Source: Escherichia coli (GTDB taxonomy: Bacteria; Pseudomonadota; Gammaproteobacteria; Enterobacterales; Enterobacteriaceae). Taken from it: a stretch of 64,000 bases of DNA. Made by a program: the position numbers and the translations under genes. The stretch lies in the NCBI RefSeq assembly GCF_013122565.1, contig NZ_CP053258.1; one strand, written 5' to 3'. Each line of letters begins with the position of its first letter. Within the stretch, counting starts at the first letter, position 1. Shown piece after piece: positions 41,027 through 60,512 of this stretch. Under the pieces are notes generated by a model. It searched no databases. It saw nothing but the letters and a program-made list of their open reading frames with translations, and was not told the DNA's origin.

Positions 41027-41039
41027 AACACTTCTTTTT

Positions 41040-41235
41040 CGGCCTATAAATCATCAACCGCATCCGGCACTTTTGGCGGATGCGCTGCTGGCGCATCTTA
41101 TCCGCCCTACAAGCCATGAACCGTTGACCATATAAGCGCAGCGCATCCGGCTCTTCCTGGCGGAGGCGATGCTGACGCATCTTATCCGCCCTACAAGCCA
41201 TGAACCATAGACCGGATAAGCGCAGCGCATCCGGC
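41040..41235. repeat. REP/BIME cluster with an ~80-bp direct duplication
   Basis: GCGCATCTTATCCGCCCTACAAGCCATGAACC occurs at about 41090 and 41170, interleaved with inverted GCGCAGCGCATCCGGC units. Confidence 0.8.
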
Positions 41236-41237
41236 AG

Positions 41238-41390
41238 TTATGCCGCACGTTCATCCCGCACCGCTAACACCTCGGGCAAATTCAACTCAATCCAGTCCGC
41301 CAGTGCAGCAACCTTTTCGCTCACCTGCTCGCCCAGCGGCGTGAGGCTGTATTCCACATGCGGCGGCGTTACTGGCGTTGTCCGGCCAAT
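41238..41390 (-). pseudogene. ytfH: 3' remnant of HxlR-family regulator gene ytfH (N-terminal two-thirds absent)
   Basis: Reverse frame gives ...PPHVEYSLTPLGEQVSEKVAALADWIELNLPEVLAVRDERAA*, an HxlR-type C-terminus; in-frame TAA directly upstream and no start codon. Confidence 0.6.
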
Positions 41391-41500
41391 GTTAATAACT
41401 AGTTAATTAAAGTGGCATCCTCCCGCATCCTCTCTGATAATGACGGGATGCCGGGAGCAATCATGTCTGCTTCCTGAACTTTCTTCTGACAGATCAATGG

Positions 41501-42502: not shown

Positions 42503-42561
42503 CTTTACCTAAAAGATGCATTTAATATGCATCTTATATTTTTCACCATGAGGTATCCGCT

Positions 42562-43224
42562 ATGGCTTATCGCGACCAATCTTTAGGGGAACTGGCACTC
42601 GCTATTCCTCGCGCTTCGGCACTGTTTCGTCAATATGATATGGATTACTGCTGCGGCGGTAAGCAAACGCTGGCGCGCGCGGCAGCACGTAAGGAGCTGG
42701 ATGTTGAGGTCATTGAAGCCAAACTGGCAAAGCTTGCAGAACAACCGATTGAGAAAGACTGGCGTAGCGCCCCGCTGGCGGAAATCATCGACCATATCAT
42801 CGTGCGCTACCACGATCGTCACCGCGAACAACTGCCAGAGTTGATCCTGCAAGCTTCTAAAGTCGAGCGCGTTCACGCCGACAAACCGAGCGTGCCAAAA
42901 GGGCTGACAAAATACCTGACCATGCTGCATGAAGAGCTTTCCAGCCACATGATGAAAGAAGAGCAGATCCTCTTCCCGATGATCAAACAAGGCATGGGCA
43001 GCCAGGCGATGGGGCCAATCAGCGTAATGGAAAGCGAGCACGATGAAGCGGGCGAACTGCTGGAAGTGATTAAACACACCACCAATAACGTCACACCGCC
43101 GCCGGAAGCCTGCACCACCTGGAAAGCGATGTATAACGGTATTAATGAATTGATTGATGACCTGATGGAGCACATCAGCCTGGAAAACAATGTGCTGTTC
43201 CCACGCGCGCTGGCTGGTGAGTGA
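42562..43224 (+). CDS. ytfE: Iron-sulfur cluster repair di-iron protein (RIC)
   Basis: 220 aa, [33 protein letters not shown]... Confidence 0.95.
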
Positions 43225-43276
43225 TTCGTTCGATCAACGATCCTGACATGTACGGGATCGTTGATTGTTAAGAGGT

Positions 43277-44770: not shown

Positions 44771-44802
44771 AGCGTCATCCTGAAGCTGTTAGCGTGAAGA
44801 GG

Positions 44803-45960
44803 TTATTTAAATAAGGGTTTAAGACCGCTCGGGGGTTGCTTCACCGATGACCAACCTCCCTTACCTAAGTTATAACGCAGCCATTTACCTTGTTGGACGT
44901 GCTCTTTCCCAACTCCAGTCGCTTGTTGAGTGTAAAGCTGCCCGTCTGTTGATATAAACGTGTTAGTTAATCCCCAACTACCACCTGCTTCAAGTGAGTC
45001 GGTGAGATCCTCTGGCTTGAGATTAATCAACTCCCCTTCGCCCAGGGCGTTGGTTGTGACTTTATAAATTTGGTTCTTATATAAACCGGTATTGCGAACA
45101 AACAGATAAAAATATTCCGGATCAACTCGCGGCAGCGTTTCATAAATACACTCACTGCCCGCTGGAGTGGCTTCATGTTTGAGCCAGGACACGTTATTCA
45201 GACCAATATTAAAAGGTGCACAGCGATAGCTGGTATCCTCCAGCTCATAGTCACGCTCACCGCTTTTATCGCGATAAACTAAGCGTTCGCCAGGCATCCA
45301 GCGGATTATCTGAAAGGTTTTACGATCGGCGGGCAGCGGCTTGCCATTAACAATCACCTGCGAATTTGTCAGCACAACAAATTGCAGGGCGGAATCATGC
45401 CGCACGATTTGAAACCCGTCAGCGCTTCCCAACCAGTGCCCCTTATGCCAAAGACTATTTTTATCACGCAGTAAATTCCAGATGTCCGTCTCTTCAAGCG
45501 TTGACATATCCACCTGCTTATCACCGCTATTATCATCGGTACGCTGACCGTCAAAATAGATACTGCGTTTATCAGCAGCGAAAGCGCCGAATGCCTGAAA
45601 ACTGGCAGCGTCGACTTTAGGTTTACCGGGGGGGTTTTTCAGGACTTTGCCAGACCAAAGGACAGAGCGTCCATCAGTGAGCCAGGCATGCTGGCAATCC
45701 CCCTCGTCATCACAATCGAACTTATCGGGATTAAAATCTGACAGTAACCGGCAATCTTGTTTATTGGTTAAATTGGCAATGCGCCAGAGGCGGGAAAAGT
45801 TAACGTCCAGCAGTTCGGAGAGGATCTCATCTTTTTGCCCCTTCTCTTCGGCAACGTAAACCGTGCCTTTCTCCTGCTGGCGGTAATAAAAATCCGCGCC
45901 CCAGGAAGGTGAAATGGAGAGCGGTAATGCGGTGATTAATAACCAACTTCGCGTAACCAT
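44803..45960 (-). CDS. Secreted repeat protein, DKNYY-like, paralog 2
   Basis: 385 aa from ATG at 45960 (MVTRSWLLITALPLSISPSWG-ADFYY...); ORF-track start at 45984 is TTG; core block shared with paralog 1. Confidence 0.6.
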   Translation of the reverse strand: MVTRSWLLITALPLSISPSWGADFYYRQQEKGTVYVAEEKGQKDEILSELLDVNFSRLWRIANLTNKQDCRLLSDFNPDKFDCDDEGDCQHAWLTDGRSVLWSGKVLKNPPGKPKVDAASFQAFGAFAADKRSIYFDGQRTDDNSGDKQVDMSTLEETDIWNLLRDKNSLWHKGHWLGSADGFQIVRHDSALQFVVLTNSQVIVNGKPLPADRKTFQIIRWMPGERLVYRDKSGERDYELEDTSYRCAPFNIGLNNVSWLKHEATPAGSECIYETLPRVDPEYFYLFVRNTGLYKNQIYKVTTNALGEGELINLKPEDLTDSLEAGGSWGLTNTFISTDGQLYTQQATGVGKEHVQQGKWLRYNLGKGGWSSVKQPPSGLKPLFK

Positions 45961-46085
45961 AGTGATCTCTGAAATGAGTGGCAAAGATCCACAGTAAGTC
46001 CGCGCCTGGGGGGATGTCGATGACGGTAAGTTTTTTTAGGAATGTATAAAGACAAAGGAGATTGCTGACAAAGTGAGCTTTGTTC

Positions 46086-46200
<115 letters not shown>

Positions 46201-46226
46201 AGACACCCGCAGGTGCCTTAGCGGCA

Positions 46227-47630
46227 TTACTTCGCCATGCGTTTTTTACCAATAAACAACCAGCCCAGCCCCAACGCGATAAACCACAGCGGGGTGACCA
46301 GCAGCGCCTGGCGGGTATCATCTTCCAGCGTCAGCAGCACGATCACAAACACAAAGAACGCCATGCATACCCAGCACATCAGCTTGCCGAGCGGCATCTT
46401 GTAGATCGACTTCTCATGCAGATGAGGACGCTGTTTGCGATACACCAGGTACGAGCAAAGGATAATCGTCCAGACGAACATAAACAGAATCGCGGAAACG
46501 GTTGTAATCATCGTGAACGCGCCAATCACGCTAGGATTCACATACAACATCACCACGCCGCCGAGCAGACAGATACACGAGAAGGTCAATCCTTTCGCGG
46601 GTACTGCGCGCTTAGAAAGTTTAGCGAACGCTTTCGGCGCAACACCTTCCTGCGCCAGACCAAACAGCATACGGCTGGTAGAGAAGACACCGCTGTTAGC
46701 GGAAGACGCCGCAGAGGTCAGCACCACAAAGTTGATCACGCTGGCAGCCGCAGGCAAACCTACCAACACAAACAGTTCAACAAACGGGCTTTTCTCCGGG
46801 ACTACCGAACTCCACGGCGTCACGGACATAATCACAATCAGCGCGAAGACGTAGAACATAATGATACGGATCGGAATGGAGTTAATCGCGCGTGGCAGTG
46901 ATTTCTCTGGATCTTTGGTTTCCGCAGCTGTTGTACCTACCAGCTCAATCCCCACGAAAGCGAAAACCGCTATCTGGAATCCGGCAAAGAAGCCACTTAA
47001 ACCTTTCGGGAACCAGCCGCCGTCATTCCACAAATGCGCGAATGACGCTTCCACACCAGTCGGTGACTGAAAGTGCATCGCCACCATGACCAGGCCGACG
47101 ACAATCAGCGACACAATGGCGACGATTTTGATCATCGCAAACCAGAACTCCATCTCACCGAACATTTTCACGGTGGCGAGGTTAAGCGTCAGCAGCAGCA
47201 CTATCACCGCCAGCGAGGCGACCCAGTCGGAGAGATCGGGGAACCAGAACTGAGCATAAGCCGTGATCGCCACCACGTCTGCCATACCGGTTACAACCCA
47301 GCAGAACCAGTAAGTCCAGCCGGTGAAATATCCTGCCCACGGCCCGAGTAAATCGGAAGCGAAGTCACTAAAAGATTTGTATTCCAGATTCGAAAGCAGC
47401 AATTCCCCCATTGCCCGCATCACGAAAAAGAGCATAAAACCAATGATCATATAAACGAAAATGATCGACGGCCCGGCAAGGCTAATCGTTTTGCCAGACC
47501 CCATAAACAACCCCGTACCAATGGCACCGCCAATGGCAATAAGCTGAATATGTCGGTTTGTGAGATTGCGCCGTAGCGACTGTTCAGCCGGAGCCTGATC
47601 ATCGGCAACGACTTTTACCTGATCTACCAT
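46227..47630 (-). CDS. cycA: D-serine/D-alanine/glycine:H+ symporter (APC family)
   Basis: 467 aa, MVDQVKVVADDQAPAEQSLRRNLTNRHIQLIAIGGAIGTGLFMGSG... Confidence 0.95.
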   Translation of the reverse strand: MVDQVKVVADDQAPAEQSLRRNLTNRHIQLIAIGGAIGTGLFMGSGKTISLAGPSIIFVYMIIGFMLFFVMRAMGELLLSNLEYKSFSDFASDLLGPWAGYFTGWTYWFCWVVTGMADVVAITAYAQFWFPDLSDWVASLAVIVLLLTLNLATVKMFGEMEFWFAMIKIVAIVSLIVVGLVMVAMHFQSPTGVEASFAHLWNDGGWFPKGLSGFFAGFQIAVFAFVGIELVGTTAAETKDPEKSLPRAINSIPIRIIMFYVFALIVIMSVTPWSSVVPEKSPFVELFVLVGLPAAASVINFVVLTSAASSANSGVFSTSRMLFGLAQEGVAPKAFAKLSKRAVPAKGLTFSCICLLGGVVMLYVNPSVIGAFTMITTVSAILFMFVWTIILCSYLVYRKQRPHLHEKSIYKMPLGKLMCWVCMAFFVFVIVLLTLEDDTRQALLVTPLWFIALGLGWLFIGKKRMAK

Positions 47631-47938
47631 GTTTTTTTCTTCCTGTACCTGTCTGTGTTGTTCAGGCTCTACGGCCTTTAGTCAGTCTATGATACGACGA
47701 ATCTGTATCGGGACTCATCGATATTAGGTAACAATACGCGGGATGAATACTAAGATTTAGATCTAATGTTAATTTTATGTTTAAAGTGAGTGTCATATCA
47801 CGGTGATAACGCGAAACAGCTCACAAAAATACACGCTTACGGGGTCTTTGCAACACAAAATAGCGCCGTTTGGCAAACTGAAGGGTTTATTGCTGAATGC
47901 CTGCTCCCCTCTGGTTCGAGGGGAACAGAATGCGCTGC

Positions 47939-48559
47939 TTAGAGGATTTCCAGCAGTTCGACTTCAAACACCAGGGTGCTGAACGGAGGGATGGATGCGC
48001 CTGCACCGCGCTCGCCATATGCCAGTTCCTGCGGGATAGTCAGTTCCCATTTAGAACCTACCGGCATCAGAGTCAGTGCTTCAATCCAGCCAGGGATCAC
48101 GCCATTAACCGGAAATTCAGCGGGTTCACCACGAGCAACGGAGCTGTCAAACACGGTGCCGTCGATCAGTTTACCGGTGTAATGAACACGAACGCGGTCG
48201 GTACGTGCCGGAATTGCGCCTTCACCCTGGTTGATCACGCGGAATTGCAGGCCAGATTCGGTGCTATTCACACCTTCTTTTTTGGCGTTTTCTTCCAGGT
48301 ATTTCACACCTTCAGCAGCCATCGCCTGGAAACGCTGACGACGAACGGCATCGGCGCGCTCGTGGATTTCACGCAGCGCGCGATGCACCACATCAACCGG
48401 AACAGCCGGATGTTTGCCTTCCAGCGCATCGGCAATACCTGCAACCAGTGCTTCTGGCAGCAGCCCTTCCAGGCCAGATTCACTCAGTTGTTGCCCTACC
48501 TGCAAACCAATGCCGTAGCTTGCTTGCGCTTCGATGGTGTCAAAAGTTGGGGTGGTCAT
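47939..48559 (-). CDS. fklB: FKBP-type peptidyl-prolyl cis-trans isomerase
   Basis: 206 aa from ATG at 48559 ([22 protein letters not shown]...). Confidence 0.95.
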
Positions 48560-48777
48560 CGTATTTCCTTTCTTAGGGTATAAAAGTAGCGGGCAGCATA
48601 TCAGCCACACTTCTTTGGGTAAAACTTTGTCGCAGGAATGATGACAAATCCCGGGGAAAAAGAAACAATAGCAATATCCCGTATGAATATAATAAAGGCG
48701 GGTTTACCACGGACATCATAGCGTTAGCTTATTCATAGGCTATGATTGAGGAACAAGACGCGGAGCAGGAGGAAACC

Positions 48778-49416
48778 ATGCCCGGGCGCTTTGAACTAAA
48801 ACCAACCCTGGAGAAAGTCTGGCACGCGCCGGACAATTTTCGCTTCATGGACCCGCTGCCGCCGATGCATCGTCGGGGGATCATTATTGCCGCCATTGTA
48901 TTGGTGGTCGGATTTCTGCTTCCATCTGATGATACGCCCAACGCGCCGGTGGTGACGCGTGAAGCGCAGTTAGATATTCAGTCGCAATCACAACCGCCGA
49001 CAGAAGAACAGCTGCGGGCGCAATTAGTCACACCACAAAATGATCCTGATCAGGTGGCTCCGGTCGCTCCAGAACCTATACAGGAAGGCCAGCCAGAAGA
49101 ACAGCCGCAAACTACCCAAACGCAACCATTCCAGCCAGATAGCGGAATTGATAATCAATGGCGCTCTTACCGTGTCGAACCCGGTAAAACGATGGCGCAG
49201 CTGTTCCGCGACCACGGACTGCCCGCTACCGATGTCTATGCAATGGCGCAGGTAGAAGGCGCGGGTAAGCCGCTGAGTAATTTGCAAAACGGGCAGATGG
49301 TGAAAATCCGCCAGAACGCCAGCGGCGTGGTGACGGGCTTAACCATTGATACGGGGAATAATCAACAGGTCCTGTTTACCCGTCAGCCGGATGGCAGTTT
49401 TATTCGCGCGCGGTAG
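48778..49416 (+). CDS. ytfB: OapA-domain cell division protein YtfB
   Basis: 212 aa from ATG at 48778 (MPGRFELKPTLEKVWHAPDNFRF...); one TM segment. Confidence 0.85.
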   Translation: MPGRFELKPTLEKVWHAPDNFRFMDPLPPMHRRGIIIAAIVLVVGFLLPSDDTPNAPVVTREAQLDIQSQSQPPTEEQLRAQLVTPQNDPDQVAPVAPEPIQEGQPEEQPQTTQTQPFQPDSGIDNQWRSYRVEPGKTMAQLFRDHGLPATDVYAMAQVEGAGKPLSNLQNGQMVKIRQNASGVVTGLTIDTGNNQQVLFTRQPDGSFIRAR

Positions 49417-49428
49417 ATGAATCAACAT

Positions 49429-50064
49429 TCACATGCATGGGGTCACAAGGAGCCAGCTTAAAAGCGTCTCCTTGATAACCTTATGTCTGTTCTCCAAAGC
49501 CTCAGGAGATATCATACTGATGTGATAAACCAACCCTAAAGTATGTTGGTTAAGAATATAATATCCAGCAAGAGCGGCAAGGCTAATGTTTACCTGTAAT
49601 GGATCTATATCTTGCTTAAAGATATTTTGTTTTTTTCCTTCATCAAGCAACCTTTCCATAATCTCTAAATGCGAGTGGTTAATTTCGGGCAAACGAGTTG
49701 ATTTCTTGTAGTGCTCCCCTCGACTTTGGTTTTCGGAATGAATTATCTTTAAAAACCAAGGATTCTTCACATAATAATCCCACGTAAAATCAATAAATTT
49801 TTCAATGGATTGCAATGGGTTTAGTCCAGTAAAGTCCAGATCTCTTTCTTTTTGCCGGATGTCATTACACGTATATTCAAGGACTTCAATAAACAAATTC
49901 TCTTTATTACCAAAATGATGATAAACAGTCTGCTTACTACAACCGGCTGCTTTAACAATATTATCGACCCTGGCACCTTCATAGCCATACTCTGCAAATT
50001 CATTGATAGCGCACAGTAATAATTTTTCTTTCAAAATTTGCACTTTACTAGTATCAAAATACAT
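49429..50064 (-). CDS. TetR-family transcriptional regulator, full length (ytfA position)
   Basis: 211 aa from ATG at 50064 ([58 protein letters not shown]...); divergent from the downstream operon. Confidence 0.75.
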
Positions 50065-50430
50065 CTTCACCCCTCACACTAATCTTGCCAACCTATTATA
50101 TACTCTTTTACCGCGTGACCACGCACATTTTTCATACAAAAATCATCATTATCTTACAGAGCATTAAACCTACTTACATTGTTTCGTTACTGTGAAACAG
50201 ACAGAAAATTTTTCCTTGATGCATATTTGTTAAAAATGGAATATGGCTTTAATTAATTATATTCATATAATGAATATTTAACTATAAATAATTAATTCCA
50301 TTTATTTTCAAAGAGTTATAATTTTAAATATGATCTCCCTCACGAATCAACCAACTAGATGGTTGGTTCAAATAAAATCTATAGGCATCTTTGTCTCCAT
50401 GATGAATCCTGTATTTAAAGAGGTCCAAAA

Positions 50431-51222
50431 ATGAAATCAAAAAAACCCGTTGCTATTATTACCGGTGCTGCCCGTGGTATCGGTAAAGGTTGTGCTATTG
50501 AACTAGCTCGCGCTGGATTTAATCTTCTAATAAATGATCGACCAGATAAAGACAGCATCGAAAAACTTAAAGCAACTCAAAAACTATGTATCGCTGAAGG
50601 TGTTGAAGTCATAACGTTTCCAGCCAACATTGGCGATTTAACGTTACATGAAAAGATGCTCGACGCGGCGCAAAATCAGTGGGAGCGTTTGGACTGCCTG
50701 CTCAATAACGCCGGAATTTCGGTGAAAAAGCGTGGTGATATTCTCGACCTGGAGCCAGACAGTTTCGACGATAACATTGCCATCAATACCCGCGCACCTT
50801 TCTTCCTCGCCCAGGCTTTCAGCAAGCGCCTGTTGGCGCAACCCAAACCAGAAGCTGAACTACCGCATCGCTCAATTATTTTTGTCAGCTCAATTAACGC
50901 CATCATGCTGGCGATGAATCGAGGTGAGTACACCATTGCCAAAACAGCTGTATCTGCCGCTGCCCGCCTGTTTGCCGCACGTCTTTGTGAAGAGCAAATT
51001 GGCGTTTATGAAATCCGCCCAGGTTTAATCAAAACCGATATGACTATTCCAGCAACAGCTTATTACGACGAACTGATCGCTAAGGGGTTAGTGCCATGGG
51101 GTCGTTGGGGTTTTCCACAGGACATCGCCTCCACTGTCCGTGCAATGGCGGAAGGCAAACTGATTTACACCTGTGGTCAGGCGGTCGCCATCGACGGCGG
51201 CTTAAGTATGCCACGCTTCTGA
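50431..51222 (+). CDS. Short-chain dehydrogenase/reductase (SDR)
   Basis: 263 aa; TGAARGIG Rossmann motif and Y-x3-K catalytic pair. Confidence 0.8.
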   Translation: MKSKKPVAIITGAARGIGKGCAIELARAGFNLLINDRPDKDSIEKLKATQKLCIAEGVEVITFPANIGDLTLHEKMLDAAQNQWERLDCLLNNAGISVKKRGDILDLEPDSFDDNIAINTRAPFFLAQAFSKRLLAQPKPEAELPHRSIIFVSSINAIMLAMNRGEYTIAKTAVSAAARLFAARLCEEQIGVYEIRPGLIKTDMTIPATAYYDELIAKGLVPWGRWGFPQDIASTVRAMAEGKLIYTCGQAVAIDGGLSMPRF

Positions 51223-51231
51223 GGCTGAACC

Positions 51232-52074
51232 ATGAGAGATCTGTTACATCGCCCGGATTTATTCAGCATCAATACCGCGACGCTGGGCTATAAAATGCCT
51301 CTGCCCGCCCTTATTGATGCTTGTGCCGCACGCGGCATCGGTGCGATTGCCCCCTGGCGCAGAGAGTTGCAGAGCGAAGATCTTCAGCAAATCGTCCGCC
51401 AGCTTGCCGCCAATAACATGAGCGTTTCTGGTTTATGCCGTAGCACCTACTACACCGCGCCGACGCTGGCAGAGCGCAAGCTGGCGATTGATGATAACCG
51501 CCGGGCGCTGGACGACGCAGCGATGCTGAACGCCGCCTGTTATATGCAGGTGGTTGGCGGTCTGCCAACGGGCACTAAAGATCTGTATGAAGCGCGGGAG
51601 CAAGTGAAAGAAGGGGTTCGCCAGTTGCTGTCACATTCGAAAGATGTCGGCGTGCCGATTGCACTGGAGCCACTGCACCCGATGACTGCTGCCGATCGCT
51701 CTTGCCTCTGCTCGCTACGTCAGGCGCTGGACTGGTGTGATGAACTCGATCCCGATGGTGAGTTTGGCCTCGGCGTGGCGGTCGATGTCTACCACGTCTG
51801 GTGGGATCCGGATCTCACCAGTCAGATCCTGCGCGCTGGAAAACGGATCCTCGCGTTTCATGTTTCCGACTGGCTGGTGCCGACGACCGATCTGGTCAAT
51901 GATCGGGGAATGCCGGGAGATGGCGTCATCAATATTCCGTCAATTCGTCGGCTGGTTGAAAACGCCGGATTTAATGGTTCTATCGAATTAGAAATATTTT
52001 CTTCATTCTGGTGGGAAAAGAATATCAACCAAATACTGGATAAAAGTATTAACGGACTTTCTTATTATTGTTAA
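51232..52074 (+). CDS. Sugar-phosphate isomerase/epimerase (xylose-isomerase-like TIM barrel)
   Basis: 280 aa; family assigned from overall sequence character; 9 nt after the SDR stop. Confidence 0.7.
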   Translation: MRDLLHRPDLFSINTATLGYKMPLPALIDACAARGIGAIAPWRRELQSEDLQQIVRQLAANNMSVSGLCRSTYYTAPTLAERKLAIDDNRRALDDAAMLNAACYMQVVGGLPTGTKDLYEAREQVKEGVRQLLSHSKDVGVPIALEPLHPMTAADRSCLCSLRQALDWCDELDPDGEFGLGVAVDVYHVWWDPDLTSQILRAGKRILAFHVSDWLVPTTDLVNDRGMPGDGVINIPSIRRLVENAGFNGSIELEIFSSFWWEKNINQILDKSINGLSYYC

Positions 52075-52223
52075 ACATCACACTATATTTTTCTCTCGAA
52101 ATTAGTTGATTGTTTAAATTTGCATGTTTTAGAAAGTTATGAGTGAAGTAATAAATCAATAAATTAAATATCTTACAGAGCATTGCGAGTGTTAGGTATT
52201 TATAATCAAATAGGGATTGGCAT

Positions 52224-53765
52224 ATGAGCAAGATTAATACTGCAGAAATACTGGTCGCAGGTATTAAAGATGGCGCAACAATCGCCATTAGCGGTAATGG
52301 CGGTGGAATGGTTGAAGCCGATCATCTACTACAAGCTCTGGAAACACGGTTTCTGGAAACCGGGCATCCATGTAACCTTACGCTTATACACTCATTAGGT
52401 GTAGGAGACCGTGAACACAAAGGCAGTAACCGTTTTGCTCATAAAGGAATGTTAAAGCGTGTTATTGCAGGACATTTCACATGGTCACCAAGAATGCAGG
52501 CTCTGGTTAAGAATAATGAGGTCGAGGCTTATTGCTTTCCTAGCGGAGTTATTCAGACATTATTACGTGAAATAGGCGCTGGACGTCCAGGACTGTTCAC
52601 CCATGTCGGGGTAGGAACTTTTATTGATCCGCGTAATGGAGGAGGGAAATCTAATTCACGAACGACAGAGGATCTGGTAGAGCTAATTGAAATTGATGGA
52701 GAAACAAAGCTACGCTATCGCCCATTTAAAGTTGATTACGCAATTGTGCGCGGTACTTATGCGGATTCACGCGGTAATATTAGCCTGGAAGAAGAAGCCG
52801 TCGATCTGGATTGCAATTCTATAGCTCTAGCTGCCCATAATAGCGGTGGTAAAGTCTTTGTGCAGGTACGTGACATTCTTGAAACAGGTGCGATTGAACC
52901 CAGACGAGTAAAAATACCCGGAATCTTAGTCGATGGCGTCGTGGAATATAGAGATCAACAACAAACATATCTTGGTGGTTACGATCTTACTATCAGCGGC
53001 CAGCATCGTCGTCTTTGTTCTCAAAACTCTATTGAACTGGTTTCAAACCCAATACGTCGATTAATTGCACGCCGTGCAGCACGCGAGTTAGTTGCTGGCG
53101 CATCCACAAACTTTGGCTTTGGCATGCCAGGAGGGATCCCAGGTATTGCTCTGCGTGAAGGAGTCCCTTTTGATACCCTTTGGCTCAGCGTGGAACAAGG
53201 TGTGCATAATGGCATGATGCTGGATGATGCTCTGTTTGGCTGTGCTCGCAATGCTGATGCGATAATTCCTTCTCTTGAGCAGTTTGATTTTTATAGTGGT
53301 GGTGGTGCCGATATAACTTTTCTCGGTATGGGGGAAATGGATCAGTATGGAAACGTGAATGTTTCCCATCTCAACAATAACCTTATCGGACCAGGCGGTT
53401 TTATCGAAATTGCACAGAATGCCCATAAAGTGGTGTTCTGCGGCACGTTTGATGCCAAGGGTAGCAAAATAAACGTCACAAATGCGGGCCTGGAAATCAT
53501 TCAATCCGGCCAGGTAGCAAAACTTGTTTCACAAGTAGAAGAGATAACTTTCAGCGGAGAATATGCGCAACAACGTAAACAGGATGTGTTGTACATTACC
53601 GAGCGCGCTGTATTCCAGTTAACGCCACAGGGTGTGGAACTAATTGAGGTTGCCCCTGGCGTGGACATTGACCACGACATTCTGCCGTATATGGCCTTCC
53701 GTCCAATTATCAAGCACCCACGCCTGATGGAAAGTAGTCTGTTTACGCCGATGGAGGATGCATGA
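52224..53765 (+). CDS. Family I CoA-transferase (fused alpha/beta, YdiF/Pct-like)
   Basis: 513 aa; glycine-rich motifs (ISGNGGGM, GPGGFIEIAQNA); stop overlaps next gene start. Confidence 0.7.
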   Translation: MSKINTAEILVAGIKDGATIAISGNGGGMVEADHLLQALETRFLETGHPCNLTLIHSLGVGDREHKGSNRFAHKGMLKRVIAGHFTWSPRMQALVKNNEVEAYCFPSGVIQTLLREIGAGRPGLFTHVGVGTFIDPRNGGGKSNSRTTEDLVELIEIDGETKLRYRPFKVDYAIVRGTYADSRGNISLEEEAVDLDCNSIALAAHNSGGKVFVQVRDILETGAIEPRRVKIPGILVDGVVEYRDQQQTYLGGYDLTISGQHRRLCSQNSIELVSNPIRRLIARRAARELVAGASTNFGFGMPGGIPGIALREGVPFDTLWLSVEQGVHNGMMLDDALFGCARNADAIIPSLEQFDFYSGGGADITFLGMGEMDQYGNVNVSHLNNNLIGPGGFIEIAQNAHKVVFCGTFDAKGSKINVTNAGLEIIQSGQVAKLVSQVEEITFSGEYAQQRKQDVLYITERAVFQLTPQGVELIEVAPGVDIDHDILPYMAFRPIIKHPRLMESSLFTPMEDA

Positions 53766-55834
53766 GTCAGCTTGATGACACCATCCTTGATGCGCTGACA
53801 CACGTCACTTTCCCAAAGGGGTTTGTGTCAGCAGAGCCAACACCAATTGTCACCGTTGAGGATGTTGATTACCCGATCTGGCACGTTGATGCGCTGGTCG
53901 TTGGTAGCGGCGCAGCAGGATTACGTGCGGCAGTTGAACTTAAACGCCGCCAGCAAAATGTGCTGATCGCTACCGCCGGGTTATATATGGGGACGTCGGC
54001 ATGTTCTGGTTCCGATAAACAGACACTGTTTACCGCCGCTACCGCGGGCAACGGCGACAACTTCACCAAACTGGCAGAGGCACTGGCGAGCGGTGGGGCG
54101 ATGGATCACGACACCGCTTATGTCGAAGCGGTAGGTTCTCTGCACACTCTAGGCGGGTTGCAATATCTTGGTCTGGAATTACCGGAAGATCGCTATGGCG
54201 CGATTCTTCGTTATCAAACCGACCATGACGAAGCTGGGCGTGCAACCTCGTGTGGGCCGCGTACCTCAAGGTTAATGGTGAAAGTGCTGTTGGAAGAAGT
54301 ACAGCGCCTCGCCATTCCAGTGTTGACCAGTGCAACAGTGATTAAACTGCTGCATCAGCGTGACGAAAACGGCGAAGACCGCGTGGCAGGGGCAATCCTC
54401 GCGACCGGTCATCGCGCCCATAACCCATGGGGGCTGGCAATTGTGACTGCGCCCAATGTGGTACTGGCAACGGGCGGACCGGGCGAGCTTTATCGCGACA
54501 GTGTTTATCCACATAAATGCTTCGGCTCGCTGGGGCTGGCGCTGGAGGAAGGTCTGACGCTAACCAATCTGACCGAAAGCCAGTTTGGTATAGGCACACC
54601 GCGCAGCACGTTTCCGTGGAATTTGTCCGGCACCTATGTGCAGGTGATCCCGTATATCTATTCCGTGGATGCTGAGGGTAACGAGTATAACTTCCTCGCG
54701 GATTACTATCGCACCACCCAAGAGCTGGCTTCAAACATCTTCCGTAAAGGCTATCAGTGGCCGTTCCACGCCACGCGGGTAATGGATTTTGGCTCCAGCT
54801 TGTTAGATATGGCGGTGGCGCAAGAACAGCAACATGGTCGTCTGGTGTTTATGGATTTCAATCGTAATCCTGAAGCGGTGCCTGGTGATCTACCCTTCTC
54901 ATTAGATCGACTGGACGACGACGTTCGCGCGTATCTGGAAAATAACGACGCTCTGGCACCATCGCCCATCGAACGGCTGCAACGAATGAATCCGCTGTCT
55001 ATCTCGCTGTATAAGATGCACGGTTACGATCTCACCACGCAGCCATTGCAGTTTGCCATGAATAATCAGCACATGAATGGCGGCATTGAAGTGGATATCT
55101 GGGGACAAACATCCCTGCCCGGTTGTTTTGCAGTGGGAGAAGTAGCCGGTACTCACGGCGTTACCCGACCTGGCGGCGCGGCGCTGAATGCCGGACAGGT
55201 TTTTGCCGTGCGTCTGGCGCGCTTTATTGGTTGCACACAAAAGCGGTCTGTTGAGGAGGATGTCGCGCAGCTGGTAGCCTCATCTCTGCATATAGTCAGA
55301 GAAGTTATCGCTCAGGCACTGGCAAACGAGAACGGAATGGCGCTGGTAACGGTGAAAGAAAAAATCCAGGCGCGAATGTCTGATTACGCTGGATTTATTT
55401 GTCATGCCGATAAAGTTCGTCACGCCACCCGTGACGCCCTGCTGTTAAGTGAGTTTGTACAACAACACGGTTTGACCATCAAACATGTTGGCGAAATTGC
55501 CGAACTATTTATGTGGCGGCATATGGCACTGACTTCTGCCGCCATATTGACACAATTGACGCATTATATTGACGCAGGTGGCGGCAGTCGTGGGGCGCGG
55601 ATAATTATTGATCACTATGGGGAAGGTCTACCACAAACTCGACAGGGTGCAAAAGAAAAATGGCGTTTTAGATTGGAGTCTGAAAATGAAAGAGAATCAC
55701 GAGCAACGATTCAGCTTAACAATGGAGAATTTATAATAAATAAAAACAAGATACGTCAAATAATCAATTTCAAAAATAATTATTTTGAAAAAAATTGGCC
55801 GGAGTTTCTCCTTGGAGAAATCTATATAAAATAA
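53762..55834 (+). CDS. FAD-dependent oxidoreductase (fumarate reductase/succinate dehydrogenase flavoprotein-like)
   Basis: 690 aa; N-terminal dinucleotide-binding motif VVGSGAAGLRAA; ATGA overlap with CoA-transferase gene; AT-rich 3' end. Confidence 0.65.
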   Translation: MSQLDDTILDALTHVTFPKGFVSAEPTPIVTVEDVDYPIWHVDALVVGSGAAGLRAAVELKRRQQNVLIATAGLYMGTSACSGSDKQTLFTAATAGNGDNFTKLAEALASGGAMDHDTAYVEAVGSLHTLGGLQYLGLELPEDRYGAILRYQTDHDEAGRATSCGPRTSRLMVKVLLEEVQRLAIPVLTSATVIKLLHQRDENGEDRVAGAILATGHRAHNPWGLAIVTAPNVVLATGGPGELYRDSVYPHKCFGSLGLALEEGLTLTNLTESQFGIGTPRSTFPWNLSGTYVQVIPYIYSVDAEGNEYNFLADYYRTTQELASNIFRKGYQWPFHATRVMDFGSSLLDMAVAQEQQHGRLVFMDFNRNPEAVPGDLPFSLDRLDDDVRAYLENNDALAPSPIERLQRMNPLSISLYKMHGYDLTTQPLQFAMNNQHMNGGIEVDIWGQTSLPGCFAVGEVAGTHGVTRPGGAALNAGQVFAVRLARFIGCTQKRSVEEDVAQLVASSLHIVREVIAQALANENGMALVTVKEKIQARMSDYAGFICHADKVRHATRDALLLSEFVQQHGLTIKHVGEIAELFMWRHMALTSAAILTQLTHYIDAGGGSRGARIIIDHYGEGLPQTRQGAKEKWRFRLESENERESRATIQLNNGEFIINKNKIRQIINFKNNYFEKNWPEFLLGEIYIK

Positions 55835-55937
55835 ACGCCTTTTAAATCGGTAGCTATTAAATAAATATTTTATGATTTGCAAAATTCACGCTTTTACATT
55901 GTGAGTATTTTCTATTGATAATATCAAAGGTTTAATC

Positions 55938-57218
55938 ATGAAAAAAATCAAGCACTATAGGTGGCATATTATCGTCTTAATATGTTTCATCACTGTAATT
56001 AATTATTTGGACAGAACAGCATTAGGCGTGGCCGCGCCCACAATAATGCAAACGATGGGGATAACTAAAGAGCAATATTCATGGGTTGTCAGTGCATTCC
56101 AGTTAGCATATACAATTGGACAACCTGTAATGGGATTCTTTATTGACCTTATCGGTCTGAAATTTAGCTTTTTCATTTGCATTATAATCTGGGGACTTGC
56201 CACTATGGGGCACGCATTAGCGGGATCCTGGCAAGGTTTGGCCTTTATGCGTGGCCTGATGGGAGTAAGTGAAGCCTCCGTCTTTCCCGCAGGGATAAAG
56301 ACTGTATCGACGTGGTTTCCTGCTAAAGAACGCGGTATTGCTGCGGGATTCTTCAACACGGGTACATCTCTTGGTGCCATGCTTGCTCCACCGCTTATTG
56401 CCTGGTGCATAATGTTCCATAGTTGGCAATTCGCATTTCTGGTTTCTGGCTGTCTGGCATTATTTGCGGCAGTGATGTGGTTTATCTTTTATAAAGACCC
56501 CAAAGATGCCAAAGGACTTTCTGAAGAGGAAAGACACTATATAGAGTCTGGGCAAGAAAAACATCTTGATTCTAATAAAAGTAAAAAAGCAACCATTCTT
56601 CATGTTATTAAAAAACGCAATTTCTGGGGTATTGGCATTACCCGTTTCCTGGCAGAACCAGCTTGGGGAACAATCAACTTTTGGGTACCTATATTTTTCG
56701 TTGAAACATTGCATTTCAGCTTAAAAGATATAGCAATGTTTATCTGGCTCCCGTTTTTATTAGGTGACTTGGGTTGTTTATCTAGTGGTTTTATCGCTAA
56801 GTTTTTTCACGATCGCGGGGTTAGCCTTCTTAATGCACGAAGAATTACATTTACATTCGCTGCAACAACGATGATGTCGATTGGTTTGGTTAGCATCGTC
56901 ACTAATCCGTACATTGCTGTATTACTAATTAGTATCGGTGCATTCTCACATCAATGCCTATCTACTGTTGTTGCCACTATGGGGGCCGATCTTTTTGAAA
57001 AAGAAGAAGTCGCAACAGTAGTTGGATTATCGGGAGGGTGTGGATATACAGGGCAACTGATATTTAATATATTCATTGGTGTATTCGTTGCTGCAATTGG
57101 CTTCTCGACATTCTTTGTGATACTTGCCTTCCTGGATATTATTGGTGCCATTATTTTATGGTCTGTAATTAGACCACCGAAACTTGTTGAACAAACAAAT
57201 TTAGTAACACAATCGTAG
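55938..57218 (+). CDS. MFS transporter
   Basis: 426 aa, about 12 TM segments, AT-rich codon usage. Confidence 0.8.
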   Translation: MKKIKHYRWHIIVLICFITVINYLDRTALGVAAPTIMQTMGITKEQYSWVVSAFQLAYTIGQPVMGFFIDLIGLKFSFFICIIIWGLATMGHALAGSWQGLAFMRGLMGVSEASVFPAGIKTVSTWFPAKERGIAAGFFNTGTSLGAMLAPPLIAWCIMFHSWQFAFLVSGCLALFAAVMWFIFYKDPKDAKGLSEEERHYIESGQEKHLDSNKSKKATILHVIKKRNFWGIGITRFLAEPAWGTINFWVPIFFVETLHFSLKDIAMFIWLPFLLGDLGCLSSGFIAKFFHDRGVSLLNARRITFTFAATTMMSIGLVSIVTNPYIAVLLISIGAFSHQCLSTVVATMGADLFEKEEVATVVGLSGGCGYTGQLIFNIFIGVFVAAIGFSTFFVILAFLDIIGAIILWSVIRPPKLVEQTNLVTQS

Positions 57219-57269
57219 TTTTTATTTTTACCTATAGAATTTTAATCGAAAAAAAATAAAGGAAAGATT

Positions 57270-57749
57270 ATGTCTCAAACAGAAATTATTCTTCCTTCAG
57301 GAAGAGAACTTACTCCAGGTGAATATGGTTATGCCAATCTGGAACCTGGCGATCACTACCAGACTCCCGGTCTTAACGTAACAGAGTCACAGATTGTTGC
57401 TTTTGCGGGGATAAGCGGTGATTTTTTCGATGTTCATATGGATGATGAATTTGCAAGGGAAAAAGGATTTCCAGGACGCATTGCCCACGGTCTGTTAGGT
57501 TTAGCATTGACGGACGGCCTGAAGAATCGTTCTATTGTACGTTTACGTGCAGTTGCTACATTAAACTGGAACTGGTCATTCTGTGCACCATTATTGCCTG
57601 GAGATCATATTCACGCCGTTATTACTGTTGTTAAAAAACGCCCCACCAAACGTGAAGACCGAGGCATTGTGACTTTTGCTTTACAATTGTTTAATCAACA
57701 TGGAAAGATAATACAGCGAGGCGAAACTCTGCTGATGATGATGCAATAA
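57270..57749 (+). CDS. MaoC-like (R)-specific enoyl-CoA hydratase/dehydratase
   Basis: 159 aa hot-dog-fold-type sequence; GGAAAG RBS. Confidence 0.7.
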   Translation: MSQTEIILPSGRELTPGEYGYANLEPGDHYQTPGLNVTESQIVAFAGISGDFFDVHMDDEFAREKGFPGRIAHGLLGLALTDGLKNRSIVRLRAVATLNWNWSFCAPLLPGDHIHAVITVVKKRPTKREDRGIVTFALQLFNQHGKIIQRGETLLMMMQ

Positions 57750-57868
57750 TCTGAGTTTGAAATACGTACCAACGAGTATGCTGGTACGTATTTCTTCGCA
57801 AACGCACTGTTTATGCTCTCTCCCTCATAATGACTGTTTCATCTAACTAATATTTCTAAATAACTGTC

Positions 57869-59137
57869 CTAAATTGACGACCTGAATGCCTCTGCCATTA
57901 ACTCTTGCTCACGATCAGGTAATCTAAGACGCTCGGCAATAGTTTGCCACTGACTGACAATCCCTCTAAAATTAGCAATAATGTCATCAGCTTCCGTCAA
58001 ACTAAGTCGAAAATACTCTGCAACTTCTCTAGCTAATTCCAAATCAAGTGCATTATCATTTTCCGTAATATTAAGCTTTAAACCGTCAGATCTGGAAACA
58101 GGATTCAAATCATATGCTTCAGAAAGCCGCCAACCTTTTCCCGGTATCAAGATATATCCATGATTACGTAAATGATCATCGGTATTAGAAACAAGAATAT
58201 TAAAAACAATTCTGGACCAGAGTTCTTTAAGGTCAGTATTGGTCTGCGCTCCGTGCCTGATAAGAACATCTGCTAATTCCAGATAACTTACACCTGTAGA
58301 GGCATCTTCACCATCCTGATGTCTGGTTAGTGTCATAGCCGAAGCAAAATGCAGACGCCTTCCCGCATTAGTGCGGTCAAAACGACGAACCATAAAACAA
58401 TGGTAATTGCTGGCAAATTTATGCGCCTGAGCAGGTGCAACATTCAGTCCACAGCCAACAGCAAGCGCATTAACGACCATTTCCCATCCACCAACATCAT
58501 ACTCATCTTTTGCACTGGGAAATTTAGCGATGTAAAGATGTCCGGCTTCATCAACCACACTGGCTTTTGGACGTGCACCCCCTAATGATCCCCCCGGAGC
58601 GATTAGCATTCTTAACCATTTTTGCCCCATGAGTTCTTTATTATCAGGATCTTCTTCAATTGCCCGGCTAGCCCTTTCCAGACTCGCTATTTCGGTAAAT
58701 GGTGGGGCTGCAACATTAATGCGGTTATCAAGAAACTCTCCAGCGTCTTCACGTTTGTATCGAAGAGCCCCAACCCGATAAAGATCATGAACACCTAATA
58801 GATAGTCAGACTCATAAAGGTGGGAGTCTTTATCAAATAACCCATCTCGAATATCCCTCTCAAAACGACGCTTCATTAGCATACGCCCCCAACGATCCGG
58901 GCAGGAATCACTAAACGCACCAAATTTATCCTTTGGAGGAATTGGGTACTGTGCTCCCTCATACAACATTATTTCAGGATCTAACTGAATGAAATTAAGT
59001 GCACGATCTGCAAGCGCCTTTTTATCGTACTCAAACTCAAATATCTCACGCGCCCGAGTGCGACGACTGTGTAAATAACCAATACGCGCAGGACCATCCA
59101 GGCCTTCCCAATCCGCATACACTCCGATTAATGCCAT
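57869..59137 (-). CDS. HipA-family serine/threonine kinase (type II toxin-like)
   Basis: 422 aa; HipA-like motifs GGSLGGARPKASV (P-loop-like) and DDHLRNHG (catalytic); AAGGAAAT RBS; 13 nt after HTH gene stop. Confidence 0.8.
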   Translation of the reverse strand: MALIGVYADWEGLDGPARIGYLHSRRTRAREIFEFEYDKKALADRALNFIQLDPEIMLYEGAQYPIPPKDKFGAFSDSCPDRWGRMLMKRRFERDIRDGLFDKDSHLYESDYLLGVHDLYRVGALRYKREDAGEFLDNRINVAAPPFTEIASLERASRAIEEDPDNKELMGQKWLRMLIAPGGSLGGARPKASVVDEAGHLYIAKFPSAKDEYDVGGWEMVVNALAVGCGLNVAPAQAHKFASNYHCFMVRRFDRTNAGRRLHFASAMTLTRHQDGEDASTGVSYLELADVLIRHGAQTNTDLKELWSRIVFNILVSNTDDHLRNHGYILIPGKGWRLSEAYDLNPVSRSDGLKLNITENDNALDLELAREVAEYFRLSLTEADDIIANFRGIVSQWQTIAERLRLPDREQELMAEAFRSSI

Positions 59138-59150
59138 AATTAATTTCCTT

Positions 59151-59642
59151 TTATCGGTTTTTTATCGGTTTTTTTATCGGTTGTAATAGTGCAGCAAGAG
59201 AGGTTGACGTTTCCCCTGGAATAGTTGGCGTTGAGTCTTTTGCCAGTGCTGTTAAATCCGTGGTGAGATGACCTTCTTTCTCGCGTTTCGTCTGAAATGA
59301 GGCTGTCTGAATCCCTTCTTCATTCTTAACTGATGAACGAGAAAGCCCTCTTTTTTTAATCAAACGGGAATCCTGGAGCTGATGCCCTAAGGCGTCTTCA
59401 GCTGCAAGCTTATTTAAATCCGTTTCCAGGCCCAAAACCTGCATCACAGACAAATATGCCCCTATCGTGACCCCTGCACTTCCTGCCTCCAGAGAACGCA
59501 ATGTGATTGGCGACATCCCTGCACGCTCAGCAACTTGCTTTGCGGTTAGCTTACGTCGTAAACGAGCAAGTTTCAGACGCTCACCAAATTCACTAAGCAT
59601 CTGATTCGTATAAGGGAGTAACGGTGCTGTTTTTTTACCCAT
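59151..59642 (-). CDS. XRE-family HTH protein with long low-complexity C-terminal tail (HipB-like antitoxin candidate)
   Basis: 163 aa; HTH in [39 protein letters not shown]; about 80-aa S/T/K-rich tail ending [10 protein letters not shown]; start may instead be the internal ATG at 59600. Confidence 0.7.
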
Positions 59643-59664
59643 AGTGATAATATTTTATCTTTTT

Positions 59665-59681
59665 ATGGCTATGATAGCCAT
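59665..59681. promoter_or_regulatory. 17-bp perfect palindrome ATGGCTATgATAGCCAT upstream of the HTH gene; candidate operator
   Basis: Read directly; flanked by ATAATATT direct repeats; 25-40 bp upstream of the ATG at 59642. Confidence 0.45.
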
Positions 59682-60003
59682 AATATTAGCATTTATTAGA
59701 TTGAACGCACCTGCAAAGCGTTCAGAATTATGGAAGAGATAATATCTTATCTTTTTATATATAAAAACAATAAAATAACAGCACATTAATATATAACTTA
59801 TTGTTTTTATTATCTTACAAGGGAGACACTCGCTGTATTGATGCTTTTGTCGTGTTTTATGTGTAAAAAACATGACACGAACTACCAGCGGCGAGACTGG
59901 GGGCTGGGGGCCTGGTATGGGTACTGCGAACTTTTTATAAAAGGAATAGCAAGAGATTTATGGAGGGAACGTCTATTTCTGCGGTTTTTATCACTTAAAA
60001 GCA

Positions 60004-60030
60004 AAACGCCGACCAATGGTCGGCGTTTTT
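60004..60030 (-). terminator. rplI operon terminator (bidirectional-looking hairpin)
   Basis: AAAACGCCGACC-AAT-GGTCGGCGTTTTT with T/A runs on both sides, just downstream of rplI stop. Confidence 0.7.
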
Positions 60031-60050
60031 ACGTCTCGTTGAATAACGAA

Positions 60051-60512
<462 letters not shown>

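Follow-up and report, generated by a model that had tools for sequence, protein, structure and literature searches.

What does a TetR-controlled gene cluster do that lies between ytfB and rplI in Escherichia coli, and how did it come to stand there? We addressed this question in a stretch of 64,000 nucleotides from contig NZ_CP053258.1 (assembly GCF_013122565.1), hereafter the window. In the cluster, a gene for a TetR-family repressor is divergent from six structural genes, all on the plus strand, which encode a short-chain dehydrogenase/reductase (SDR), a xylose-isomerase-like TIM-barrel protein, a coenzyme A (CoA)-transferase, a flavoprotein, a transporter of the major facilitator superfamily (MFS) and a MaoC-type hydratase. 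A first-pass annotation, made from the letters of the window, had described these seven genes as a putative CoA-dependent catabolic operon; all seven open reading frames (ORFs) proved intact where it had placed them, and their family assignments hold in Pfam, NCBIfam and the PDB. We find that the operon is real, conserved and, judging from a predicted operator, regulated, that it joins known superfamilies in an undescribed combination, and that the window carries a rare haplotype of it in which the hydratase has been swapped.

All seven genes are under strong constraint. Compared with the two nearest relatives, their ratios of nonsynonymous to synonymous substitution (dN/dS) were 0.015-0.083 at dS of 0.14-0.70, which argues that they are functional genes and not chance ORFs. 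The CoA-transferase and flavoprotein genes share the 4-nt ATGA overlap seen in the first-pass annotation (...GGAGGATGCATGAGT...), with a GGAGGA Shine-Dalgarno sequence within the end of the transferase gene, and the other gaps in the structural cluster are 9, 149, 103 and 51 nt long. The overlap is kept in Escherichia, Klebsiella and Salmonella, and the two genes are adjacent in Sodalis and Rhodocyclaceae as well. In some E. coli records one protein of 1078 or 1043 aa is encoded: P0023 combines CoA_trans with FAD_binding_2, and for P0032 CoA_trans alone is listed, yet 88% of the flavoprotein is covered; a fusion through loss of the stop codon or change of frame at the ATGA overlap is likely, and the records amount to a natural fusion of two translationally coupled genes. 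An Rfam search found no riboswitch or other RNA element in 49000-60500, and a scan for internal terminators gave no more candidates than chance, none of them convincing.

The description of the flavoprotein as fumarate-reductase-like held for the fold and failed for the active site. Its sole detected domain is FAD_binding_2 (PF00890, 9.5e-28), and the AlphaFold model (pLDDT 90.9) shows the four-domain fold of FrdA/SdhA, which are also its top Foldseek matches (TM 0.65-0.8, 14-19% identity). Residues were read from HMMER alignments to mycobacterial Sdh and NadB, plus an alignment of the family. The histidine that binds flavin adenine dinucleotide (FAD) covalently ('KAHT' of mycobacterial Sdh) corresponds to Ser79, which is invariant in the family; the position of the QFH histidine reads QFG, with an invariant Gly276; and the second substrate histidine position (HxxGG) aligns to Gln436, which His437 adjoins. 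FrdA/SdhA and NadB are the best structural matches and have the FAD-binding motifs and Arg469 (NadB Arg386) in common with the flavoprotein, but of the dicarboxylate-binding histidines and arginines Arg469 alone is kept, and the capping-domain arginine, for which Arg360 and Arg405 are candidates, could not be aligned. Genes for an iron-sulphur (Fe-S) subunit (FrdB/SdhB) and a membrane anchor were found neither among the ORFs of 47500-59500 nor in homologous clusters. Because of Ser79, Gly276 and Gln436, and of the missing Fe-S subunit gene, the protein is predicted to be a member of the superfamily with non-covalent FAD and a remodelled substrate site. A true fumarate reductase, succinate dehydrogenase or aspartate oxidase is ruled out, since the residues of the active site do not fit and an Fe-S partner is missing.

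The reaction of the flavoprotein may be approached through its family, of which 413 clusters at 50% identity reach E<=1e-30; the source names of the 120 closest homologues listed (76-95% identity) are all generic. In one member of 1084 aa (P0150), an NADH:flavin oxidoreductase domain like that of old yellow enzyme (OYE; PF00724) is fused to the flavoprotein, and in Planctomycetes the neighbours of the flavoprotein gene encode OYE, 4Fe-4S and NAD(P)H-binding proteins. Two soluble enoate reductases that have been characterised, the Klebsiella pneumoniae fumarate reductase and the Vibrio harveyi acrylate reductase, pair FAD_binding_2 with an NADH module like OYE, and substitutions at the same histidines determine what they act on (bioRxiv 10.1101/2022.01.20.477176). 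Because the fusion and the adjacency to OYE recall these characterised enzymes, the analogy favours a flavoprotein that reduces or forms a C=C bond adjacent to a carboxyl or a carbonyl. Predicted non-covalent FAD and altered substrate histidines are likewise shared with the wider group of soluble FAD_binding_2 enoate reductases (the K. pneumoniae NADH:fumarate reductase, FRD; the V. harveyi acrylate reductase, ARD; urocanate and methacrylate reductases), and the OYE-like NADH modules of FRD and ARD are mirrored by the fusion and adjacency among the relatives of the flavoprotein. Unlike these reductases, the flavoprotein itself lacks an FMN_bind and an OYE domain, and the operon offers no gene for such a partner. 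Instead of the flavocytochrome c3 type, the protein shows the four-domain architecture of complex II and NadB, in which the C-terminal domain is helical.

The locus was first described as strain-variable accessory content. It is indeed variable among E. coli, but it is not a recent insertion. The architecture of the window was found in one of 5426 complete E. coli genomes, EC23HZZ201 (89.7% identity); the haplotype is intact in L001 and in the draft assemblies L090 and L092, and the draft assembly L091 has its TIM-barrel gene broken into two ORFs. The version found in E. coli 536, to which the window cluster is 79-85% identical, is far more common, since 3098 of the 5426 genomes (57%) have at least 80% of it. 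In this version a divergent TetR gene is followed by genes for SDR, TIM barrel, crotonase (enoyl-CoA hydratase, ECH), CoA-transferase, flavoprotein and MFS transporter, with no MaoC gene. Klebsiella oxytoca and Salmonella enterica carry the cluster in the same order at the same ytfB-rplI site, and by this comparison of the loci the cluster is ancestral there. In a K-12-like O16:H48 genome the site holds only a 5'-truncated TetR pseudogene and yjfZ, in agreement with what the first-pass annotation stated of K-12, and this is better read as a loss of the cluster in K-12-like lineages.

Further disruptions were seen at the locus. Truncated TIM-barrel versions of 207 aa occur in many E. coli and Shigella records (P0311-P0323 and others), an indication that in some lineages the cluster has decayed into pseudogenes more than once. 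An IS200/IS605 element (tnpA plus the InsQ/TnpB RNA-guided endonuclease) interrupts the TetR remnant in several E. coli strains without the cluster (H37-H39; site ~49430-49830). In a subset of 536-type clusters, those of the E. coli genomes H33-H35, the match stops at position 6678 of 8280, and the 3' end of the flavoprotein gene and the MFS gene are replaced or missing (~55500-57200).

In the window haplotype, the crotonase that most Enterobacteriaceae use has given way to MaoC: the MaoC gene is appended after the MFS gene, and an AT-rich spacer of 149 nt takes the position of the crotonase gene. By tblastn no crotonase remnant was found in this gap or in the whole cluster, nor any MaoC remnant in the clusters of 536, Klebsiella, Salmonella, Sodalis and Brenneria. 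The mosaic composition noticed at first was borne out, with a G+C content of 0.36 for the TetR gene, 0.46 for the transferase gene, 0.38 for the 3' end of the flavoprotein gene, 0.41 for the MFS gene and 0.425 for the MaoC gene, against 0.54 for the TIM-barrel gene and the 5' part of the flavoprotein gene; the 536 allele of the transferase gene also has 0.54. Relative to 536, the TIM-barrel and flavoprotein genes have a dS of ~0.4, whereas the TetR, CoA-transferase and MFS genes are saturated, and the diverged segments are the AT-rich ones (0.36-0.46 versus 0.54). This contrast points to recombination with an AT-richer donor as the probable source of the mosaic. The flanking core genes (40000-49400 and flanks) are only ~94.9% identical to those of the best-matching E. 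coli genomes, which places the window in a divergent lineage of Escherichia; the haplotypes in which the cluster exists are likewise deeply diverged.

Relatives in other genera indicate which genes belong together. In Rhodocyclaceae (a metagenome-assembled genome and Uliginosibacterium), a TetR gene (TetR_C_29) is accompanied by genes for MaoC, SDR, TIM barrel, ECH, CoA-transferase and flavoprotein, together with the DctQMP genes of a tripartite ATP-independent periplasmic (TRAP) transporter. The enzymes of these clusters are 53-60% identical to those of the window. The MaoC proteins of the Rhodocyclaceae and of the window are only 27-30% identical; their orthology was rejected, and the window MaoC was thus recruited independently. 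Because the Rhodocyclaceae have both ECH and MaoC, both types of hydratase belong to the full gene set. Klebsiella, Salmonella and Rhodocyclaceae share the SDR-TIM-ECH-transferase-flavoprotein set in this order. The enteric order is also that of Sodalis ligni, in which the ECH gene appears disrupted and a flavodoxin gene follows the MFS gene. Other relatives have no CoA genes. In Brenneria, TetR is followed by SDR, TIM barrel, flavoprotein and a PcaK-like aromatic-acid MFS transporter; Pseudescherichia, Phytobacter and Mangrovibacter have TetR, then SDR, a Gfo/Idh/MocA-family oxidoreductase (Gfo), TIM barrel, MFS and flavoprotein; and in Lentisphaeria and Opitutia the SDR, TIM-barrel and flavoprotein genes stand with a Gfo gene and no TetR gene was found nearby. 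In NCBIfam the Gfo protein matches levoglucosan dehydrogenase best (290 bits, cutoff 650).

In a simple neighbour-joining tree of the flavoprotein, the enteric CoA-type is sister to Brenneria, and the Rhodocyclaceae CoA-type is sister to the enteric Gfo-type. Clusters with and without CoA genes thus interleave, which argues that the CoA genes are a swappable module. From a scan with one genome per species, 74 loci outside Escherichia that have a member of the flavoprotein family were analysed as well. The neighbours were an SDR in 27 of the 74, a Gfo/Idh/MocA oxidoreductase in 24, the ATPase of a sugar ATP-binding cassette (ABC) transporter in 21 and an OYE-like flavoprotein in 19; glucose-methanol-choline (GMC) oxidoreductases of two types (18 loci each), LacI (18), a KdgK-like kinase (15), an Eda-like aldolase (11) and a TIM barrel (10) followed, and a CoA-transferase lay within 10 kb in 4. 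The gene-neighbourhood comparison envisaged at the outset thus came out with the SDR, TIM barrel, flavoprotein and TetR kept while the CoA genes vary. On this comparative evidence, TetR, SDR, TIM barrel and flavoprotein form a stable core, with the CoA genes or the Gfo gene as exchangeable modules; in our reading, CoA-transferase and hydratase together are such an addition to the core, specific to certain lineages. Members of the family that are 52-56% identical stand in a conserved carbohydrate-type block in Rhizobiaceae and Rhodobacteraceae (L016-L062), made up of a sugar ABC transporter, two GMC oxidoreductases, Dabb, LacI, Gfo/Idh/MocA, the flavoprotein, a KdgK-like kinase and sometimes Eda; it looks like another uncharacterised carbohydrate pathway.

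The remaining enzymes can be placed in families with some precision. The SDR matches PRK12745 in NCBIfam at 403 bits, above the cutoff, which gives a name only; it has the motifs TGAARGIG and NNAG and the catalytic triad S153/Y167/K171, its dN/dS is 0.03-0.07, and its closest PDB entries, 4da9 and 4one, come from structural genomics. The TIM barrel (PF01261 at 2.6e-37) is 48-49% identical to Sinorhizobium meliloti SMc04130 (3ju2/3qc0), to which its model has a TM of 0.89, and 40% identical to the Paenibacillus protein 7vpf, both annotated merely as 'putative sugar isomerase'; remote structural relatives are ketose 3-epimerases, IolI, YcjR and QuiC1. Among its invariant residues E146, H149, D185, H188, H210, D213, E252 and E254, we predict E146, D185, H210 and E254 to be the metal ligands.

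The CoA-transferase is a fused single-chain enzyme of family I. It aligns over its full length with E. coli YdiF (PDB 2ahu, E 1.7e-119, residues 7-508 on 18-518), its Glu324 (VEQG) falls on the catalytic YdiF Glu333 (VETG), and PF01144 was found on near-identical homologues; a chain of this kind, with a CoA_trans domain, measures ~510-530 aa. The only related NCBIfam equivalog, staphylococcal FadX, scored 388 bits against a cutoff of 750. Like YdiF and the Clostridium propionicum Pct, the protein is a single chain of ~510-530 aa with the catalytic Glu kept; unlike YdiF, it stands in another operon, without ydiO/ydiQRST or fadK genes. In MaoC, the motif SGDFFDVH supplies the catalytic pair Asp51-x4-His56; PF01575 was found on homologues at least 97% identical, and dN/dS is 0.04. 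Its NCBIfam matches, the C-terminal domain of PaaZ and RipB/Ich (47 bits, cutoff 340), are below cutoff, and its PDB matches are the PaaZ hydratase domain and PhaJ. The conserved residues of the transferase and MaoC support a genuine CoA-dependent component of putative activity. The MFS transporter, with a dN/dS of 0.015-0.02 and 76% identity to that of 536, has its best NCBIfam match in TIGR00893 (anion:cation symporter (ACS)/D-galactonate transporter; 320 bits, cutoff 395). Pfam calls for several of the proteins were made on 94-99% identical homologues in L090-L092.

In NCBIfam, no cluster protein reached an equivalog above cutoff, and the SDR alone passed any cutoff. The first reading, that the operon matches no named E. 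coli pathway, agrees with our searches: NCBIfam, the PDB and the searchable literature gave no substrate. Nothing on the cluster turned up in literature searches, which covered SMc04130, 7VPF and 3JU2/3QC0, the names ytfB/rplI/TetR and ytfA/yjfZ, the product names in combination, and phylogroup B2 together with names of enzymes; ytfA is merely listed in one paper as a variably present TetR gene.

Control by TetR, as proposed from gene order, gained support from the intergenic region. The repressor has an N-terminal helix-turn-helix and is divergently oriented; TetR_N and TetR_C_29 were detected in 97-99% identical homologues (Pfam, L090-L092), the NCBIfam matches are sub-threshold only, with weak ones to AcrR and MtrR, the closest PDB entry (3npi) is uncharacterised, and dN/dS is 0.04-0.05. 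Between the TetR and SDR genes lie 360 nt, which contain a promoter-like site and, beginning 12 nt downstream of it, a palindrome that is unique in the window (0 chance matches expected). The window, EC23HZZ201, 536, K. oxytoca and Salmonella enterica all have the same 18-nt core of the palindrome, CAACCAACTAGATGGTTG, compared with a mean column identity of only 72% for the surrounding region in these five genomes. The consensus match of the promoter-like site is by itself not above chance; its TTCA and TGAT cores are kept in the five-genome alignment, and we take it as the probable promoter of the structural genes. The palindrome is likely the TetR operator, for which it is a candidate, and its position has the signature expected of a predicted operator that would block transcription initiation or early elongation. 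Weaker resemblances stand 5' of the SDR gene in Sodalis, with a perfect ACCAACTAGTTGGT core, in Rhodocyclaceae and in the Gfo-type enteric clusters (4-7 mismatches of 22, at a chance level not assessed), and none was found upstream of the SDR gene in Brenneria.

We tentatively suggest, at slightly below an even chance, that the whole is a repressor-controlled catabolic operon for an imported and probably hydroxylated carboxylic acid. TetR would bind the palindrome just downstream of the promoter and be released by the substrate or an intermediate, and the ACS-type MFS transporter would import the anion. Uptake of an organic anion, also part of the first proposal, fits the closeness of the transporter to the ACS/D-galactonate family and the TRAP systems of the Rhodocyclaceae clusters; with the PcaK-like MFS of Brenneria, all transporter types of the clusters are carboxylate-carrying ones. 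The SDR would oxidise a secondary alcohol to a ketone, next to which the metal-dependent TIM barrel would isomerise or dehydrate the compound, and the FrdA-fold flavoprotein with its non-covalent FAD would reduce or form the resulting C=C bond. The YdiF-type transferase would make a thioester of the acid or of an acid product, and MaoC would add or remove water across a 2-enoyl-CoA, the product passing to general thiolysis. The repressor, import and transferase/MaoC steps are predicted from family assignment and conserved residues; the SDR-TIM-flavoprotein step, the chemistry throughout, which way the flavoprotein reaction runs and the class of substrate are what we infer. What the data themselves establish are the gene content, its conservation and purifying selection, the operator motif, the catalytic residues and the fold of the flavoprotein.

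Several points weigh against this scheme. The operon encodes no electron partner for the flavoprotein. The flavoprotein tree carries no support values, and the 149-nt and 103-nt gaps could hold internal promoters. Transfer from genomic context is uncertain, because relatives at 35-58% identity in sugar-type contexts may differ in substrate. The ATGA overlap, kept in the three enteric genera, favours a tighter link between transferase and flavoprotein than that of a peripheral module.

The same overlap, with its internal Shine-Dalgarno sequence, and the adjacency of the two genes in Sodalis and Rhodocyclaceae would be natural in a linear CoA pathway like cai, in which the transferase activates the acid, the flavoprotein acts directly on the thioester as an enoyl-CoA reductase or acyl-CoA dehydrogenase, MaoC hydrates or dehydrates the product and the SDR is a 3-hydroxyacyl-CoA dehydrogenase. 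A FabG-like SDR and an (R)-hydratase are, from general knowledge, stereochemically consistent, and the flavoprotein could fill the role of the acyl-CoA dehydrogenase that the operon lacks. We nevertheless consider this reading doubtful. A CoA-transferase is near the flavoprotein in few non-Escherichia loci, Brenneria and the Gfo-type enterics keep TetR, SDR, TIM barrel and flavoprotein without CoA enzymes, and the TIM barrel is left without a role. Moreover, in the CoA-rich clusters L013 and L064, AcrC-like acyl-CoA dehydrogenases stand beside the flavoprotein, in one case with an electron transfer flavoprotein (ETF), which argues against a flavoprotein that just serves as acyl-CoA dehydrogenase of the pathway. 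Of the CoA logic proposed at first, the part concerning the transferase and MaoC survives with their catalytic residues, and the part in which the flavoprotein is a simple enoyl-CoA reductase or dehydrogenase of a linear pathway is unlikely.

The cai system shares with the cluster the logic of a transporter, a CoA-transferase, a hydratase/dehydratase and a flavoprotein acting on a double bond. It consists of CaiB, a family III transferase, CaiA, an acyl-CoA dehydrogenase, the crotonase CaiD and CaiT, a betaine/carnitine/choline transporter (BCCT), and has no SDR or TIM barrel. The two differ in every protein family, since the cluster has a family I transferase, an FAD_binding_2 flavoprotein, an MFS transporter and no fix/ETF genes; the CaiA, CaiB, CaiD and CaiT families are all absent from it, which rejects identity with cai. 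Itaconate degradation by Ict-Ich-Ccl is rejected as well, because no ORF encodes a lyase (Ccl, HpcH family) and MaoC falls far below the RipB/Ich cutoff, and the paa and ydiF/ydiO pathways are ruled out on gene content. The cluster thus matches none of the four, as had been supposed.

It is also possible, though we think it improbable, that the core degrades a neutral or acidic sugar- or cyclitol-like compound, e.g. quinate, shikimate or a deoxy or unsaturated sugar acid, and that the CoA enzymes salvage a 3-hydroxy or 2-enoic C3-C4 by-product. The neighbours of the family are of carbohydrate type: Gfo/Idh/MocA proteins nearest to levoglucosan and inositol dehydrogenases, KdgK-like and Eda-like proteins, LacI and sugar ABC transporters. 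L064 joins an IlvD-type aldonate dehydratase and a DapA-type aldolase to CoA enzymes, Brenneria has its PcaK-like aromatic-acid transporter, the TIM barrel has IolI, YcjR, ketose 3-epimerases and QuiC1 as remote relatives, and YdiF-type transferases are generally known to prefer short-chain acids. However, the similarities to characterised enzymes are below family cutoffs or at 13-22% identity, the Escherichia operon has neither kinase nor aldolase, and quinate and shikimate are suggested by analogy alone. Sister clusters combine Gfo/Idh/MocA with the TIM-barrel and SDR families of the operon, and in this they resemble the pathways that oxidise and then eliminate or isomerise levoglucosan (LgdA/LgdB), inositol (IolG/IolE/IolI) or 3-keto-glycosides (YcjS/YcjR), but these pathways have no FrdA-like flavoprotein and no CoA enzymes, and the Escherichia operon has no Gfo; in the levoglucosan papers no FrdA-like flavoprotein is described.

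Much less probable is a unit for efflux or detoxification under TetR control, with the MFS transporter as exporter of a toxic compound that the enzymes would modify. TetR regulators often control MFS pumps, and the repressor has its weak AcrR and MtrR matches, but the transporter is closest to anion:cation symporters with 12 transmembrane segments, which are importers, and DHA-type efflux models score far lower; homologous clusters have TRAP uptake systems, and five catabolic-type enzymes are co-conserved with the transporter. Least probable of all is a decaying remnant without current function in the window lineage, for although the cluster is lost or truncated in many E. coli lineages such as K-12, O157 and Shigella (207-aa TIM-barrel fragments) and the window has no crotonase, each of the seven ORFs has its full length, L001, L090 and L092 carry the haplotype intact, and the dN/dS values reject pseudogenes.

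For the hydroxylated acid of our preferred scheme, hydroaromatic acids (quinate, shikimate), unsaturated or deoxy sugar acids, and short hydroxy or enoic acids are speculative candidates. The bile-acid bai system, with baiJKL, has the same combination of MFS, SDR, CoA-transferase and FAD_binding_2/OYE flavoproteins acting at a ring ketone, with a transferase of family III. We know of no sequence-level relationship between bai and the cluster beyond the superfamily, and with TRAP and ACS transporters and hosts that live in soil, a small hydrophilic acid is favoured. A bolder and, in our judgement, unlikely extension is that SDR, TIM barrel and flavoprotein form a previously unrecognised cassette that would oxidise, eliminate or isomerise, and then reduce, and so dehydroxylate ring- or sugar-derived acids from Planctomycetes to Enterobacteriaceae; gut Escherichia, Klebsiella and Salmonella would use a hydroxy-acid of the diet or host as food or electron sink, perhaps a hydroaromatic one like quinate or shikimate, or a sugar acid that is unsaturated or deoxy. 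If this were true, the flavoprotein would define a new substrate class in the complex II flavoprotein superfamily.

A version of the operon is present in more than half of the complete E. coli genomes, among them those of extraintestinal pathogenic strains such as 536; it is common in pathogenic lineages of the species, and its absence from laboratory K-12 let it escape classical genetics. The flavoprotein family, with more than 400 clusters at 50% identity, spans many phyla, and no functional name was found for it. Identification of the inducer and substrate would reveal a metabolic trait by which E. coli lineages differ in the gut, assign a role to a large branch of the succinate dehydrogenase/fumarate reductase superfamily that is so far an orphan, and explain why two unrelated hydratases, crotonase and MaoC, were exchanged within one operon. 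The conserved candidate operator and promoter-like site make a reporter-based ligand screen feasible.

Table 1. Genes and predicted control sites of the cluster, in positions of the window
Feature	Position	Strand	Remarks
TetR-family repressor gene	49429-50064	-	211 aa from ATG; alternative GTG start at 50070
Promoter-like site TTTTCA-N18-TATGAT, for the structural genes (predicted)	50305-50334	+	consensus scan
Candidate TetR operator, palindrome ATCAACCAACT-AGATGGTTGGT, 22 bp	50346-50367		inverted-repeat search
Classical SDR oxidoreductase gene	50431-51222	+	263 aa
Xylose-isomerase-like TIM-barrel metalloenzyme gene	51232-52074	+	280 aa
AT-rich spacer, 149 nt	52075-52223		position of the crotonase (ECH) gene in other lineages
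Fused family I CoA-transferase gene, YdiF type	52224-53765	+	513 aa
FrdA/SdhA-fold flavoprotein gene	53762-55834	+	690 aa
MFS transporter gene	55938-57218	+	426 aa
MaoC-type (R)-specific enoyl-CoA hydratase gene	57270-57749	+	159 aa

Two observations concern the neighbourhood of the cluster. An ORF of 228 aa (47897-48583, plus strand) lies antisense to fklB (47939-48610, minus strand) and is almost certainly a spurious shadow ORF. Between the MaoC gene and rplI, the minus strand encodes an intact HipA-family toxin (422 aa) and a helix-turn-helix, HipB-like antitoxin (163 aa) at 57869-59642; this pair is absent from L090-L092, and the HipA gene is frameshifted in E. coli 536 and in fragments in EC23HZZ201.

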